From Bdellovibrionota bacterium FG-1 (GTDB lineage Bacteria; Bdellovibrionota; UBA1018): DNA of 64,000 bases. Each line of letters opens with the position of its first letter. Within the stretch, counting starts at the first letter, position 1. Of the stretch, positions 14,221 through 32,268 are shown in pieces. The position numbers were made by a program, and so were the translations under genes. The notes under the pieces were generated by a model. It had not been told where the DNA came from and ran no database searches. It worked only from the letters and a program-made list of their open reading frames with translations. The stretch is taken from assembly GCA_051382295.1 (NCBI GenBank), contig JBBCAW010000013.1, positions 32,001 through 96,000 on the forward strand, in the 5' to 3' direction.

Positions 14221-14657
14221 TTGTTTAAGGGCGATAGCAGAGTGGATGGAAACGGTCTTGGACTTTACCATGCACGCACCCAGTGCGAAGCATGGGGCGG
14301 AAGGCTCGAGATCACTTCTCAACTGGGAGAAGGAACGACCATTATTCTCAATCTCCCCCGATCGAATCCTCCTGAGTGGTTTGTTGCAGAACTCAAACTC
14401 CTGCCCAACTCGACAGTAGTCGTCCTTGATGACGACGAAAGTATTCACCAGATTTGGAGACAAAGAGCAGATTCGCTGAAATTGGGTGAAAATGGCATTA
14501 CCTTGGCTCACCTCTCTACTCCTGCGGATATTCGCAAATGGTATACTGAGCAGACGCTAACGGGCCCTAAACCCGTACAGTACCTTTGCGATTATGAATT
14601 ACTTGGCTTCAAGGAAACCGGTTTAGACCTCATTGAAGAGCTCGAAATTGCCACTCG
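14221..14657 (+). pseudogene. Fragment of a hybrid histidine kinase (HATPase end plus receiver-like domain), 5'-truncated and cut by the transposon
   Basis: G2 box GNGLGL...WGGRLEITSQLGEGTT, then VVVLDDD and YLCDYEL...GLDLI; in-frame stop at 14215; frame runs into the left inverted repeat. Confidence 0.75.
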
Positions 14658-14683
14658 TGTGGCCGCTCACGCCCAATTTCAGT
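14658..14683 (+). repeat. Left terminal inverted repeat
   Basis: TGTGGCCGCTCACGCCCAATTTCAGT; 21/26 match to reverse complement of 19177-19202; second AATTCAGT at 14710-14717. Confidence 0.88.
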
Positions 14684-14774
14684 ATAGCGGCCTGAATTGC
14701 CCGTCCCCGAATTCAGTGTAGAATGAGAAGAAAGGGTTGGCGTCCAGCGTTGAACGCGCCGGACGCCGTGACCT

Positions 14775-15524
14775 TTGCCTTATGGAACAAGGCCTGGGTC
14801 AAGCATAAGTGTCATTCTCGGCTTTCCAGATTTCAAGAGTTACTTGGAGACGATCGGGCCGAAAATCGGGCGACCGGAGCGGCCATCGTCTTGCCTGGCG
14901 TGTGACTGTTTGAGGATCTGGTTCAATGGATGGCGCAAGGTGCATGCGGTGATCCTGGAGGATGGCAAGCCCGGCCGCAGTGAGGATGGGCTCCTCCTCC
15001 AGCGCGTGGTCTGCTCACAGTGCGGGCTATCGTGGACGTTGCGTCCGTCATTCTTGTACCCGCATCTGTCCATGCAGCCGGATGTGGCCGAGTCGGCCGT
15101 ATTGACGTATCTGAGTGAGCCCGCCGCGACCTATAAACGGGTGGGTGAACGGATCGGCTGCTCCGCCCGTGCCGTGTGGCGATGGGTAGGATGGGTTGCG
15201 CGGTTTTTGGAAGCCGCACAGCTGCTCTCGGAGGCTGAGCTGTCGACCGGTGGCGGGCAATCGGTCACGCTCATCCCGCGAGAGGTCCCGCAGGATCATG
15301 AAAAGGCTTATTCACCCGCGCGGGCCGAAGTTTTACTTCGAGCCTTTCAGGGCGTATCCGCCCTGGTTGCATGGGCACGTGCGCAAGTGGCACCGCCCGA
15401 TGACCCGAGTCCCCTTCGTTTTTGGCTGCTCATGCGATTCCTGGTGTTCCGGGAGATGCACCCCCAGGTGGGGGTACCTCAATCCCCGCCGTTGCCGGTC
15501 GCCCCAAGGGGGCCTCCGGTGTAA
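14775..15524 (+). CDS. Transposon protein with CxxC...CxxC zinc ribbon and HTH (DUF6431-like); start uncertain
   Basis: CLAC and CSQC, then WTLRPSFLYPH, then HTH ATYKRVGERIGCSARAVWRWV. Confidence 0.7.
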   Translation: MPYGTRPGSSISVILGFPDFKSYLETIGPKIGRPERPSSCLACDCLRIWFNGWRKVHAVILEDGKPGRSEDGLLLQRVVCSQCGLSWTLRPSFLYPHLSMQPDVAESAVLTYLSEPAATYKRVGERIGCSARAVWRWVGWVARFLEAAQLLSEAELSTGGGQSVTLIPREVPQDHEKAYSPARAEVLLRAFQGVSALVAWARAQVAPPDDPSPLRFWLLMRFLVFREMHPQVGVPQSPPLPVAPRGPPV

Positions 15525-15534
15525 ATCGGCGCCC

Positions 15535-17217
15535 ATGAGTTGGGATGACGAGATTGATGAGCGAAGGCGCGCAGTCGCACTATTCAGATACGCCGTGATC
15601 GGTGAGTTGGAGTTTGAGGGGCTCAACCGAGGGGAGCTTTCTGCCCGAATCCAGGTACTTTCCGAAAAAAAGTGGAAGATGCCTGACGGAGAAGAGTACG
15701 AATTCACGGCGCGGACGCTTTGGAATTGGTGGATGAATTACAAACGCGAAGGACTCAAGGGGCTGCTCCCCGCGTCGCGAAAGACCGGACCCCGCGAGAT
15801 CAGCCCAGAAGTGCTCAAAGAGGCCATCCAGGCCCGCAAGGAAGTACCCTCACGCTCCACCCGGACCCTGATCCGCGTGCTTGAACTCAAGAACGTCGTG
15901 CCCAGGGGAAAGCTCAAACGCTCCACCTTGGACCGGATTTTAGATGAAGCCGGTGAATCCCGGCGCAAGCTTAAAACCCTGGGCAACAAGCGCTTCACGC
16001 GCCTGCTCTTCTCCCAGCCCAACGAATTCTGGGTTGGGGATTATCACGAGGCGCCGATTCTTTGGGTTCCCGCTCGTCAGACCTACGACACCGTCCACAT
16101 GGGCGCCGTGATCGATCACTACTCAAAGTACGTGCCGCACGGCGAGTGGTACCCAAACGAGCGCATCGCGACCCTGGAGGACACCATTAAGCAAGCTTTT
16201 CTCACGCGCGGGCTGCCGAAAAAAATGTACGTGGACAATGGGAGCGTTTATCGCTCCCATGATTTCGCCTTCGCGCTGACGCACCTGGATGTCCGGCTGG
16301 TCCACTCCAAGGCCTACCAAAGCGAAGGACGGGGCGTCATCGAGCGGTTTAACCGCACGGTTGCGGAGGGTTTTGAGCCGGAGGCCCGCGCGGCCAAGAT
16401 CACGGACCTACCCACTTTGAATCGTTTTTGGATTGCTTGGCTGGAGGAGAGCTACCATCTCGTGATCCACGGTTCGACCGGCGAGAAGCCGATGGATCGT
16501 TTTACGGGAAGCGGGTTTGTCCCAAAATATCCCGACCCCGTGAAGATCCAGGATATTTTTCGCGTGAAGGAAAAGCGCAAGGTCCATCCAAAAACCGGGA
16601 CAGTGGAAGTGGAAACCAAGCTTTTTCAATGTGAAAACTTCCTGCGCGGACGTTGGGTCCAGGTCCTGTTTGATCCCTTTAAACTCGATGACGTGCTCAT
16701 CGTGCTCAAGGGCAAGCATGTCCAGCGTGCGTTTCCCCAGAAAGTGAACGATCCGCAGCCCAAGCCCGAGCGTCCCACCGCGGCTCAGTTGTCGTTTGAT
16801 TATCTGGGCGCACTCCGAGCCGAGTATGATCGGAGAATCGCCATGCAGGCGCGGCATATTTCCGTCACGGACTTTAAACCCAGTCCCGAGTTTTCCTTGC
16901 AACCGTTTCTCGGGCTTTGTGCCCAGATGCTTGGAAAATCGCTGTCCGCTTACGAAAAAGAGAATCTCACGCGTACGTTTAACGGGGTGGGTCCTTTTTC
17001 GGAAAAGGTCGTGCGGCTGGCGCTTGAACACGCCATGAAACTACGCGGGCGGGGGCTCCATGTCTCTGTTTACACGCACTACCTCAAGGTTTTTCACTTT
17101 GCCGCGCTCAATGCCAATCGCGACGAAGCTCAAAATGTTCCTAAAACCGACAAAAAAAAGGAGACCCCTGACCATGATCATCGCAACCCCTCTAAACGTG
17201 CCCCACACGACCCGTGA
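15535..17217 (+). CDS. DDE transposase (integrase core with Mu-transposase-like C-terminal domain)
   Basis: Likely start ATG 15535 (MSWDDEID...ALFRYAVI); HTH; WVGD, IDHYSK, YVDNGSVY, GRGVIERFNRT; RKVHPKTGTV...VLFDPF. Confidence 0.93.
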   Translation: MSWDDEIDERRRAVALFRYAVIGELEFEGLNRGELSARIQVLSEKKWKMPDGEEYEFTARTLWNWWMNYKREGLKGLLPASRKTGPREISPEVLKEAIQARKEVPSRSTRTLIRVLELKNVVPRGKLKRSTLDRILDEAGESRRKLKTLGNKRFTRLLFSQPNEFWVGDYHEAPILWVPARQTYDTVHMGAVIDHYSKYVPHGEWYPNERIATLEDTIKQAFLTRGLPKKMYVDNGSVYRSHDFAFALTHLDVRLVHSKAYQSEGRGVIERFNRTVAEGFEPEARAAKITDLPTLNRFWIAWLEESYHLVIHGSTGEKPMDRFTGSGFVPKYPDPVKIQDIFRVKEKRKVHPKTGTVEVETKLFQCENFLRGRWVQVLFDPFKLDDVLIVLKGKHVQRAFPQKVNDPQPKPERPTAAQLSFDYLGALRAEYDRRIAMQARHISVTDFKPSPEFSLQPFLGLCAQMLGKSLSAYEKENLTRTFNGVGPFSEKVVRLALEHAMKLRGRGLHVSVYTHYLKVFHFAALNANRDEAQNVPKTDKKKETPDHDHRNPSKRAPHDP

Positions 17218-18088
17218 TTACATGCCCGCCACCCCCACGCCGTCCACTGCTCCGGTTGCCGGAACTGCCACCGCTATCGCGCCATCCGACCTGGATCGCT
17301 GGCTGAGTCATTTCAATCTCAGGCAAATGCCGTTCACCCGTGCAATACCGGAGGATGGCTTGCTCCCGCATAAAAGCTTCTCGGAGGCGCTCTCGCGGCT
17401 GTCACTCGGAGTGCAGTCCAAAACACCGACCCTGCTGACGGCGGAGCCGGGCCTGGGCAAATCCACATTGCTTGGGCAATTCTCCGACGGGCTTGATAAA
17501 GGCCGCTACCGGCTGGTGTACACCGCGCTTTGTTCCTGCAAGCCCTTTGGGCTGGTGGGCCAGTTGGCGGCTCGCTACGGCATCAAGGCAGGGCGCTCGG
17601 CCGCGCTCACCGCGCAGCTGATCCTGGATGTGCTGGCCAACTCACAAAAGCACGAAATCCTGGTGCTAGACGAGGGCCAGCGGTTGCCACCGGAAAGTCT
17701 GGACGAACTGCGCCTGCTCTCCAATCTGGATTTTGACCGGACGCCGCCATTTGCCCTTGTATTGGCCGGTCAGCCCGAACTTCGCACAACGCTCCTTGCA
17801 CCCGAGCACGACTCACTTTGGCAGCGCCTGTCGATTCGCGCAACGCTTACTCCGCTTACGGATCGGGAAACCGTCGACTACATCGACCGGCGCGTGAGAG
17901 CGGCCGGAGCCACGGCAAATCTCTTTCGCCCGGGGGCAATCGATAAAATCTTCGAGCGCACCCGGGGTGTCCCCCGGTTGATCAACAACCTCGCGACCGC
18001 CGCCCTGCTGGCCGCCGGCAGCGCCGGAAAAAGGCATGTGGATGTGGCCGAGGTTGAGAACGCGTCCTTTGATCAGGAAAACTCCTGA
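17174..18088 (+). CDS. ExeA-like AAA+ ATPase, probable transposition regulator
   Basis: AAGGAG before ATG 17174; HFNLRQMPF, Walker A AEPGLGKST, Walker B LVLDEGQRL, LAGQPEL, TRGVPRLINNL. Confidence 0.9.
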   Translation: MIIATPLNVPHTTRDYMPATPTPSTAPVAGTATAIAPSDLDRWLSHFNLRQMPFTRAIPEDGLLPHKSFSEALSRLSLGVQSKTPTLLTAEPGLGKSTLLGQFSDGLDKGRYRLVYTALCSCKPFGLVGQLAARYGIKAGRSAALTAQLILDVLANSQKHEILVLDEGQRLPPESLDELRLLSNLDFDRTPPFALVLAGQPELRTTLLAPEHDSLWQRLSIRATLTPLTDRETVDYIDRRVRAAGATANLFRPGAIDKIFERTRGVPRLINNLATAALLAAGSAGKRHVDVAEVENASFDQENS

Positions 18089-19044
18089 TGGACGCCACGC
18101 CGTACGCCACGATCTCAGCCGGAGAACTCGAAACCAAGACCGCCCCCGTTAACTGGATCGTTGAGAACCTGTTTCTCGAAGCGGGGGCGGGCATCCTGGG
18201 TGGCGCGCCCAAGAGCTGCAAAAGCTTCTTCGCGCTGGATCTGTGCGTGGCCATCGCGTCTGGCACGCCCTGCGCCGGGCGGTTGCGGACGTTAAGTCCA
18301 GGCCCGGTCGTGCTTTTATGTGCCGAAGACCCGACGGCGGTCGTTTCCTCTCGTCTGGCCGCGCTTGCGGCCGCACGGGGCCGCAGTCTTTCTGATTTGC
18401 CGATCAGAATTATTGTGGAGCCGCTCGTCAGACTCCCGGAGGGGATTGAACGCCTGGCCGCAACCCTGGTCGATAGTCAGCCCCGGCTGCTGCTGCTTGA
18501 CCCTTTGATCAGGCTGCACAGGGCCGACGAAAACTCCGCCTCCGAGATGAGTGTCATCCTGGATGGCCTGCGGGGGCTGGCCAGGCGGTCAAAAACCGCG
18601 ATCCTTCTGGTGCATCACGCGCGCAAGGCTGCATCAGGCAGTAGCGGGGGCGGCCTGCGTGGTTCATCGGACCTGCATGCATTTGGGGATTCTAACCTCT
18701 ATTTGCGGCGGCTCCAGGATGATGTTCTCGAACTGAAGATTGAGCATCGCGCCGCCGCGCCTCCGGCACCGCTTAAGATCAAACTCGTCGTCAATGAAAA
18801 TGGCCATCAAACCACCGCGCGATTCGAGGTCACCGATCAAACCGCCGCCGATGAGGACCCCGTCGGAACGCACATCCTGGAACTGCTCTCGGGTGCCAAC
18901 CAACCCCTGTCCTCAACCGCGCTTCGCGAGAAGCTAGGCGTCCGCAACCAGACCGTGGCACACGCCCTTGAACAACTGGCGGCCGGTGGCCGCATCCTTC
19001 GCGTTGGTCGTGATGGCTGGCGCTCCATCCAAAAACAAAGCTGA
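18088..19044 (+). CDS. RepA/AAA_25 (RecA-fold, SF4-like) helicase with C-terminal winged HTH
   Basis: TGATG coupling; WIVENLF, GGAPKSCKS, LLLLDPL, LLVHHARK, LRGSSDL; C-terminal SSTALREKLGVRNQTVAHALEQL. Confidence 0.85.
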   Translation: MDATPYATISAGELETKTAPVNWIVENLFLEAGAGILGGAPKSCKSFFALDLCVAIASGTPCAGRLRTLSPGPVVLLCAEDPTAVVSSRLAALAAARGRSLSDLPIRIIVEPLVRLPEGIERLAATLVDSQPRLLLLDPLIRLHRADENSASEMSVILDGLRGLARRSKTAILLVHHARKAASGSSGGGLRGSSDLHAFGDSNLYLRRLQDDVLELKIEHRAAAPPAPLKIKLVVNENGHQTTARFEVTDQTAADEDPVGTHILELLSGANQPLSSTALREKLGVRNQTVAHALEQLAAGGRILRVGRDGWRSIQKQS

Positions 19045-19050
19045 TCAACT

Positions 19051-19089
19051 GTTCCCCGTTCCCGCCCTATACCCTGGGAACGCGGGAAC
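19051..19089. repeat. Palindrome built from four GTTCCC hexamers
   Basis: GTTCCCCGTTCCC-GCCCTATACCCT-GGGAACGCGGGAAC, 6 nt after the helicase stop. Confidence 0.8.
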
Positions 19090-19176
19090 GCTTCCTGCGT
19101 CATATGGAGGCCTCGTCACGCCATGCGCTCAAACTGGGCCGCACTCTGAATTACTGAAATCTGACGCGAGAATGTC

Positions 19177-19202
19177 ACTGAAATCGAGCGTTGGCGGCTA
19201 CA
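19177..19202 (-). repeat. Right terminal inverted repeat
   Basis: ACTGAAATCGAGCGTTGGCGGCTACA; second ACTGAAATC at 19153-19161 (24-bp spacing). Confidence 0.88.
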
Positions 19203-19203
19203 T

Positions 19204-19503
19204 GCTCAATCCTTGAGGGAATATTTCCCTCTCCTCGCGGAGGTAGGCGACGGAGTTTCGGAGTTTCGAAAAAAGCGCCAAGAGATGCGCGATGAGATGA
19301 CAAAGTTTGACTTGGAAAAGGTCGCGGCTATGGATGATGGAATCCTCAGATCTTATCACGAGATTGAGCGCCAGGTTCAAATCACCTTGGAGGAAGTGGA
19401 AGGACTAAAGAGAAGCGGCGATCTACGAGAGAAATATGAGGCGATTCAGACTACGTCAGTAAGATTAGGGCAGGCTTCGACAGTACTACTAAATCAAACT
19501 TAA
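19204..19503 (+). pseudogene. 3' gene fragment encoding a helical/coiled-coil segment, abutting the transposon right end
   Basis: Open frame from the element boundary to TAA 19503; no convincing start or RBS. Confidence 0.5.
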
Positions 19504-19535
19504 CGCGGTGAGCTTCACAAAGTAACCTGATACCT
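19500..19535 (+). repeat. 36-bp direct repeat copy 1 (duplicate of potC 3' end)
   Basis: TTAACGCGGTGAGCTTCACAAAGTAACCTGATACCT; 34/36 identical to 19942-19977. Confidence 0.9.
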
Positions 19536-19674
19536 ACTTTAACGAGATGGGCGTCACAAAATGAGCCGATACGATTTCATCCGGAGTCACCAGCAGGCCC
19601 CAGCCGGCCAAAAGCAGGCCGGTAAGCGCCATCAAGGGAAAGGCGCGGTGCAGTAGGGTTTGTATGAGGATCAT
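19534..19674 (-). CDS. 46-aa single-pass membrane microprotein
   Basis: AGGAGG 6 nt before ATG 19674; MILIQTLLHRAFPLMALTGLLLAGWGLLVTPDEIVSAHFVTPISLK; sigma54 site upstream. Confidence 0.65.
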   Translation of the reverse strand: MILIQTLLHRAFPLMALTGLLLAGWGLLVTPDEIVSAHFVTPISLK

Positions 19675-31724: not shown

Positions 31725-32268
31725 AAATCCTTCCTTTCATCTGAATCAAACAGTCCATAGTAGAAGGTTCCCGCCCCAGCCAACTTTCGGACTTCAGGGT
31801 AATTGAGCTAGCGCCTCCCTTTTGCTGTTTTCTGCCCATGGGGAGCAAAAATAGACGGCTCTTAAATGCATATCGGACTCCCTGCATCCAACTTGAACCC
31901 GGATCAGTTTCTTTAAATTGTTCGGGCTCGGAAATCGAAGCGCCCGTCAAAGTTCCATCACCCCCCTCACCCTTAGCGATGGAAGGAAACCGATCCATAT
32001 TGCCTGATGGTTTTTTAAGCATCCGAGTCAACACAGCCTGTGCCCGTTCAGCCTGATCCGACTTTGAATGCCCTGCCGAAAGATAGGCCCGCGCCGCCAT
32101 AAAAGTGGCGTAATGAGCATAATTTCCAAACGCCATGACTAACGAAAGCTGAATATAAAAAAGCACGAAGCCCAACAAGAGCACCAAAGTCAACGCGAAC
32201 TCAATGGTCGATTGCCCCTGTTCGCCCAACCTTTTTCGGTTTTTATACAGCCCCCAAAAACGCATCAT
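31708..32268 (-). CDS. TadE-like pseudopilin
   Basis: EQG-QSTIEFAL plus TM helix and ATFMAAR. Confidence 0.8.
   Translation of the reverse strand: MMRFWGLYKNRKRLGEQGQSTIEFALTLVLLLGFVLFYIQLSLVMAFGNYAHYATFMAARAYLSAGHSKSDQAERAQAVLTRMLKKPSGNMDRFPSIAKGEGGDGTLTGASISEPEQFKETDPGSSWMQGVRYAFKSRLFLLPMGRKQQKGGASSITLKSESWLGREPSTMDCLIQMKGRIYDNGC

Follow-up and report, generated by a model that had tools for sequence, protein, structure and literature searches.

What does a transposon of 4.5 kb do with a helicase of its own? The question is raised by a locus of Bdellovibrionota bacterium FG-1 (assembly GCA_051382295.1), studied in a stretch of 64,000 nucleotides, the window, which covers positions 32,001 to 96,000 of contig JBBCAW010000013.1 and in whose coordinates all features are given. 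An intact TGT…ACA element of 4.5 kb occupies 14658-19202 and is filled by four co-oriented genes, namely orfA, a DDE transposase, an ExeA-type AAA+ ATPase and a RepA-like helicase. The gene position directly after the ATPase in this order is called slot 4. We propose that slot 4 of this element is a replication-restart module for replicative transposition of the Mu type, a reading that is about evenly balanced between right and wrong. The anatomy of the element, its conservation, the linkage of its parts and the swapping of its fourth gene were observed in the analysis.

The helicase gene

The fourth gene (18088..19044, plus strand) encodes a protein of 318 aa with a RecA-fold helicase/ATPase domain like that of RSF1010 RepA (AAA_25, 119 bits) and a C-terminal winged helix. 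It is joined to the ATPase gene by TGATG. This coupling and the tight packing of four co-oriented genes had been described in an initial annotation made from the DNA letters alone, and the searches for open reading frames (ORFs) and domains bore both out. The only significant sequence match of the helicase in the PDB was RSF1010 RepA (1g8y, E=1.7e-13), and the RepA structures 1nlf/1olo were the top Foldseek matches of its predicted model (mean predicted local distance difference test score, pLDDT, 82). K45 (Walker A), E80, D138 (Walker B), H176/H177, R191-G-S-S and R221 were invariant in all 11 aligned helicases, and the Walker A/B motifs, catalytic Glu, HH motif and Arg finger of RSF1010 RepA are all kept. 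Judged from sequence and predicted model, the product is a RepA-type (superfamily 4, SF4) helicase with a RecA fold and intact motifs, which would be expected to unwind DNA.

Distribution and evolution of the helicase

Of 8000 candidates scored, 363 were homologs of the transposase. The best-matching 120 are 57-100% identical to it and lie mostly on contigs of 2-6 kb, as expected of collapsed multicopy elements. Loci were fetched from genomes (39) and metagenomes (the best 80 of 351), and a tree was constructed from 110 transposases after removal of all matches shorter than 330 aa and of 19 loci that were broken or nearly duplicate. The window transposase falls with full support in a clade of 23 rows (clade A), which stands beside its sister clade of 34 rows (clade B). 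Named hosts of clade A include Actinomycetota, Acidobacteriota, Chloroflexota, Planctomycetota, Gemmatimonadota and Rokubacteria. Its complete elements measure 4.25-4.76 kb and share a common end motif. One row of clade A (L019, genome G323) is unpublished data; it is included in the counts, trees, substitution ratios and palindrome tallies, and no conclusion rests on it.

At a transposase identity of at least 55%, all 29 scorable loci of clade A (24 distinct) carry the helicase directly 3' of the ATPase. Loci were scorable when they had sequence beyond the ATPase, and six were left out as tiny fragments or because they break off ahead of or inside the ATPase. In locus L016 a large insertion divides the helicase gene.

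In 14 clade-A elements without a DnaA_N domain (91 pairs), the median ratio of nonsynonymous to synonymous substitution (dN/dS) was 0.33 for the helicase, 0.36 for the transposase and 0.34 for the ATPase; the counting was uncorrected and the genes are rich in guanine and cytosine (GC), so that only the comparison between genes counts. It indicates purifying selection on the helicase equal to that on the transposase. The distances in these 14 elements are strongly correlated (Mantel r=0.84 for transposase and helicase, r=0.92 for ATPase and helicase), and over most of clade A the helicase phylogeny mirrors that of the transposase. Two of the checks suggested in the initial annotation, the search of genomes for the four-gene order and the comparison of transposase and helicase phylogenies, came out in its favour within clade A. 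Six clade-A elements possess a different, DnaA_N-fused helicase, which groups with the helicases of clades D and E.

Helicases behind the ATPase were also found elsewhere on the transposase tree, among them in close relatives of Tn6049, and they are spread over at least four transposase lineages. Among 39 chosen transposases the helicase label needs four changes, and a single helicase clade was rejected by the approximately unbiased test (p-AU 4e-53). The module also occurs with ATPases only 24-32% identical to that of the window. In plasmids, a search with the helicase gave one weak match. Because the helicase-bearing transposases do not form one clade and clade B has no helicase, the helicase is best described, from these trees, as a swapped module, fixed in clade A and exchangeable across the wider group. 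The earlier view of it as a core component therefore stands for clade A, where it is fixed and co-inherited, but not for the wider group: relatives that lack it or hold other genes in the same slot, which the initial annotation had itself named as evidence against its idea, are found there.

A palindrome linked to the helicase

A palindrome at 19051..19089, identified by pattern match, follows the helicase gene; like the lack of a target-site duplication, it is not mentioned in the initial annotation. Two GTTCC units on one side of a spacer that contains CTATA face two GGAAC units on the other, and the whole is a putative binding or loading site. It is the sole match to the pattern in the 4.4-Mb genome. 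The palindrome was found in 19 of 21 helicase elements (17/19 in clade A and 2/2 in clade D) as against none of 49 elements without a helicase, with a chance expectation of about 0, and the two clade-A elements missed by the pattern carry near variants. Because the letters of the palindrome are conserved rather than the pairing alone, a protein site is suggested.

Many relatives (L013, L021, L054-L057, L065, L069, L045, L049) have, between the helicase and the right end, a conserved non-coding insert of 100-250 nt that is strongly self-complementary and possibly a single-strand origin or an RNA. The window element has no such insert. No Rfam family was found over the palindrome or over the structured inserts in the nine loci scanned.

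Other genes in slot 4

The genes found in slot 4 of other elements are of several kinds. The DnaA_N-helicase fusions scored 45 and 35 bits for DnaA_N (cut-off 24.6). In the multicopy elements of one Bryobacterales genome the slot holds a primase-like protein with DUF3991 and Toprim_2, above cut-off. In clade B and others it is occupied by an ORF of 60-105 aa which usually overlaps the ATPase stop. Among 40 distinct short peptides of this kind, 28 end in Phe and 25 in an acidic residue plus Phe, compared with 16 of 2845 long ORFs of the host genome with the acidic-plus-Phe end. Typical tails are DEIPF, DEMPF and IDDPF, while the single-stranded DNA-binding protein (SSB) of the host ends in DDIPF; the 71-aa fourth-gene peptide of Tn6049 ends in DNDF. 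The SSB C-terminal tail docks on PriA, RecQ, RecG and primase. The short peptides resemble the host SSB tail and may mimic it. In the literature searched, which was thin on subscription papers and did not extend to supplements, ISfinder or TnCentral, no account of an SSB-tail-like peptide in transposons was found. The idea of a replication role stays alive because the varied genes of slot 4 are replication-related.

In a Tn6049-like locus (L162:1378-1560) the helicase and palindrome are followed by an ORF weakly like the zinc finger of CHC2 primases (E=0.07) and cut by the contig end, hinting that helicase and primase may occur together in one element. A non-autonomous element of 361 bp (L036:13318-13679; also within L039, L042 and L044) is inserted into several primase-carrying copies, and its ends are 86-89% like those of the primase-carrying transposon. 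The near-identical primase-carrying copies (L036-L044) show apparent target duplications of 4-7 bp.

Proposed role of slot 4

The replicative route appears the most likely one because the element has neither TnsA nor a resolvase. It would nick its own 3' ends and join them to a target coated by the ATPase, and the resulting Shapiro (fork) intermediate, by analogy with Mu and Tn5053, would have to be replicated into a cointegrate. In TnsA-less elements this conversion is made by host replication restart, as described in section 2.7 of PMC11406308 and in the accessible text of PMC8649781. Slot 4 would provide help at this step. In the window element the module would have two parts: the winged helix of the helicase would bind the palindrome, which lies about 110 bp in from the right end, and the helicase loaded there would open the fork. 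The element would in this way load its own helicase and not rely wholly on PriA-type restart by the host. We infer this pathway, the helicase activity and the binding of the palindrome from sequence.

In other lineages the same role could be served by the DnaA_N-helicase fusion, the primase-like protein or the SSB-tail-like peptide. Extended in this way, the proposal is that a Mu/Tn7-related group which includes Tn6049 has a dedicated, interchangeable replication slot, each filler of which initiates replication at the fork made by transposition: a helicase that loads itself and has its own cis site, a helicase fused to DnaA domain I, a primase, or a mimic of the SSB C-terminus. This broader claim is more tentative and falls somewhat short of an even chance. 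If it is true, these elements supply or recruit the hand-off from recombinase to replisome which Mu leaves to host PriA, and this could explain the spread of the group across phyla.

Sequence around the insertion

The element interrupts a hybrid histidine-kinase gene of the host. The left flank (14221..14657, plus strand) is a remnant of this gene, comprising the end of HATPase_c and most of a receiver-like domain and cut by the element, and the right flank (19203..19503, plus strand) is a C-terminal part of the same gene family. The left flank matches residues ~413-551 of an 870-aa paralog on contig C21 (74% identity), while the right flank matches residues ~770-866 of the C21 paralog (42%) and a paralog on C105 (41%); the same flank order holds in a second paralog. 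As the flanks match separated residues of the kinase paralogs in order, about 0.63 kb (~0.62-0.65 kb) of the host gene appears to be missing between them, flush with at least one element end. The interrupted gene has also lost its 5' part, and no target-site duplication flanks the element. A deletion flush with an element end is an expected outcome of intramolecular replicative transposition. An adjacent deletion made by the transposase, or recombination between two nearby copies, would explain the gap; an assembly join in this 158-contig assembly is an alternative source.

Weighing of the explanations

Several observations count against a restart module. The helicase is present in none of 26 distinct clade-B loci, each with at least 350 nt downstream, and is dispensable in the wider group; without it, clade-B elements are multicopy, and clean 6-bp duplications flank four of five clade-B copies of one long-read genome. 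Among helicase elements, too, most of the long-read copies resemble simple insertions, with 5-bp duplications in 3/4 and 2/2, and duplication-free copies occur both with the helicase (1/4) and without it (1/5). In 12 further transposon-linked helicase loci, which include elements of other clades and several that end early, the palindrome was found in four by the strict pattern and in six by a looser one. RAD51, DnaB, RadA and KaiC match the helicase fold at E-values similar to those of RepA in Foldseek. Fifteen of the 40 short peptides have no acidic-plus-Phe tail, and the 40 are related, so that the Fisher p overstates the enrichment. In the absence of a resolvase, cointegrates would need RecA. 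The deletion beside the element was deduced from paralogs rather than an empty allele, in a decaying gene and in an assembly of 158 contigs.

The simple-insertion-like copies would suit another explanation, in which helicase and palindrome form an origin from which an excised circle is made or amplified, as in the copy-out of IS3 and IS21, before integration. An initiator-like helicase with a winged helix beside an iteron-like palindrome has the anatomy of a minimal origin, and IS481 is the best NCBIfam match of the transposase. This reading is nevertheless unlikely: a pattern search for abutted ends in the fetched loci gave three matches, none with true ends on both sides, the window element has no primase, and subterminal repeat arrays with an AAA+ partner are closer to Tn552, Tn5053 and Mu than to IS3. 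Replication of an excised circle, one of the roles put forward in the initial annotation, is left without support by the lack of a true end-to-end junction in the fetched loci. The one public sequencing run found contained 5% of the sequence words; its contigs were scattered fragments without an end junction, and it carries no weight either way. The slot could also be read as a module for target selection or timing, similar to TnsE, by which insertions are steered to forks or single-stranded DNA or transposition is coupled to replication, and not as one for copying of the element. TniQ/TnsD occupies the position after the TnsC-like ATPase in Tn5053/Tn7, and the helicase lies in the same place and is translationally coupled to the ATPase; fork proteins would offer docking sites for DnaA_N and for the SSB-tail-like peptides. 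A cis palindrome that travels with the helicase points instead to action on the element's own DNA, and the module moves between ATPases as different as those described above, which makes a targeting role improbable.

Most doubtful is the view that helicase and palindrome are a repeatedly captured fragment of a plasmid or satellite replicon, hitch-hiking with no role in transposition. The gains or losses on the transposase tree (at least four), the replacement by a DnaA_N-type helicase inside clade A and the active sister elements without a helicase are all compatible with a passenger, and the more distant helicase homologs (identity up to 35%) are fused primase-helicases of other mobile elements. 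Against it, the gene is always in this one slot, its start codon overlapping the stop of the gene before it, has a long co-descent with the transposase and is under equal purifying selection; moreover, in a search anchored on the helicase, 13 of 18 loci at helicase identity of at least 38% have a transposase or ATPase match to the proteins of the window within their 1.5-kb flanks. The restart module is the reading retained here.

Relation to known elements

By membership tests the window element falls outside IS481, IS21, Tn7/Tn5053, Tn552 and Mu. The closest named element is Tn6049 of Cupriavidus metallidurans CH34 (3,517 bp on pMOL28). Both have four co-oriented genes (a Cys-rich ORF, an IS481-annotated DDE transposase, an ExeA/GspA-like ATPase and a fourth ORF), imperfect TGT...ACA ends and no resolvase. 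Their transposases are only 22% identical (E=2.5e-17) and their ATPases 28% over 155 aa, and they belong to separate, fully supported clades. The fourth gene of Tn6049 encodes the 71-aa peptide with an acidic-plus-Phe tail, without helicase or palindrome, in place of the 318-aa helicase. The Tn6049 duplication is 5 bp on pMOL28 (4 bp reported on pHS87a), compared with 6 bp in clades A and B and none at the window element. In the accessible text of PMC2864759 and PMC4739549, the description of Tn6049 is limited to a transposon of 3.5 kb, present in 12 copies, whose ATPase is GspA-like.

From its sequence relations the window element is placed in a broad, little-studied group that includes Tn6049. 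No formal description of this family was found in the literature searched, and a suspected kinship with IS1604 of M. tuberculosis found no confirmation there. The suggestion of an undescribed element accordingly holds as regards a family description, but its core architecture has a named relative.

The IS481 model matches the window transposase (NF033577, 137.9 bits) and that of Tn6049 (129.3 bits), both under the cut-off of 224; IS481 members have a single gene without an ATPase, while the window element has four. For IS21, the element proteins gave no match to IstA (NF033546) or IstB models at E<=0.1, and a true abutted-end junction was absent from the fetched loci. A Staphylococcus aureus plasmid locus (L218), which we take from its gene order to be a Tn552-type element, has a DDE transposase followed by a small AAA+ ATPase like the window element. 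Its transposase is 22% identical (E=3e-19) and its ATPase 22% over 116 aa, and it possesses recombinase and bla genes and no orfA, helicase or palindrome; the serine resolvase found beside the transposase in Tn552-like elements is missing from the window element. Mu (MuA/MuB) and Tn5053/Tn402/Tn7 (TnsB/TnsC) share the DDE and AAA+ pair and TG..CA ends with repeated sites. In contrast to Tn7/Tn5053, no TniQ/TnsD, TnsA or resolvase was found in Pfam/NCBIfam scans of the four element proteins. Phage genes are absent, unlike in Mu, Mu-transpos_C scored under its cut-off, and the clade-A transposase was absent from the viral contigs and phage records searched. RSF1010 RepA of the IncQ plasmids is ~22% identical to the window helicase, which has an additional C-terminal winged helix (DnaA_N in some relatives); the RepB primase and RepC initiator of RSF1010 have no counterpart in the element.

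In the hand-off of the transposition intermediate to the replisome, worked out mainly for Mu in E. coli, host restart proteins do the work. What the analysis adds most clearly is the picture of how slot 4 varies, and the SSB-tail-like peptide in particular. An element of 4.5 kb with its own helicase and site, together with natural slot variants, makes the hand-off step testable by gene swaps, and the SSB-tail-like peptide is testable in C. metallidurans, a cultured model bacterium with the Tn6049 variant in 12 copies. A host-independent restart module could matter for transposon tools meant for many hosts. In the accessible text of PMC11406308 and PMC8649781, Mu/Tn7-type elements use host restart proteins and a dedicated helicase is not mentioned.

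Ends and remaining genes of the element

The left terminal inverted repeat (14658..14683, plus strand) starts with TGT and the right one (19177..19202, minus strand) ends with ACA; both were identified by inverted-pair search, the left one also by shuffles and an end motif common to relatives. The arms of 26 nt are complementary at 21 of 26 positions (81%), as the initial annotation had it; they are the longest among 127 inverted pairs in 14300-19600, and in 200 shuffles of the 400-nt end regions the best 26-nt match was at most 19. The motif TGT(A/G)GCCGC-N10-YTKCAG recurs at the ends of relatives. The (A/T)TTCAG / CTGAA(A/T) repeats start at positions 20, 35 and 54 of the left end and at 20, 44 and 52 of the right. 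Further putative transposase sites lie at ~14692-14698 and ~14711-14717 inside the left end and at ~19146-19159 inside the right. The internal repeats noted earlier are therefore present, three per end, but the hexamer by itself is not enriched over chance in the 4.7-kb locus.

In many GC-rich loci the ends proposed by the automatic end-finder were false; the analysis relied only on ends bearing the conserved motif and on copy-to-copy boundaries. Of 13 clade-A contigs that include both flanks, one had a 6-bp duplication, and in clade B the length is likewise 6 bp (2 of 7 such short-read contigs). Missing duplications in relatives were rejected as evidence of rearrangement, since a short-read contig of element length may combine flanks that belong to different copies. 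In nine host genomes searched for the end pattern, no matching pair of flanks was found. The clade-B copy L031 (G1077 C3) is internally inverted and without duplication.

The first gene, orfA (14775..15524, plus strand), encodes a DUF6431-like protein with a Zn-ribbon (two Cys pairs) and a helix-turn-helix, assigned from a weak HTH_23 match and homologs. Its true start is uncertain, with homology starting near 14802. Its partners in clade-A loci are 45-61% identical; the DUF6431 match is weak in orfA of L013 and L022 and above cut-off in a Pandoraea relative. The second gene (15535..17217, plus strand) encodes a TnsB/MuA/IS481-like DDE transposase (rve, 38 bits) with the triad D169/D234/E270 (DD35E) and a conserved C-terminal extension, on which Mu-transpos_C scored 17.9 bits (cut-off 21.7). 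The third (17174..18088, plus strand) encodes the ExeA-type AAA+ ATPase, a MuB/TnsC-like partner (AAA_22; the ExeA-like TIGR03015 under cut-off). Its ATG overlaps the transposase end, with AAGGAG upstream, and the conserved part begins from ~17288.

Host genome

The element is single-copy in the host genome and has a GC content of 59.5%, compared with 51.3% for the genome. Other genomes of the phylum possess only distant transposases (27-31%, in 5 of 300) and 40 relatives match the flanks alone, for which reason the element was probably acquired horizontally. The ATPase profile matched the seed genome only among 401 genomes.

The interrupted gene family has more than 10 paralogous hybrid histidine kinases in the host genome (contigs C21, C105, C59, C33, C10, C23 and others). 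A ~40-nt sequence at ~19489-19535, a short way to the right of the element, has six further occurrences in the genome at 86-91% identity, one of them ~440 nt downstream. Contig C13 carries, outside the window at ~140.7-141.5 kb, an unrelated DDE transposase frame of 561 codons (23% identity). Contig C90 (1,046 bp) holds a clade-B fragment in which an ExeA-type ATPase (40% identical) precedes a short ORF with acidic residues and Phe at its end.

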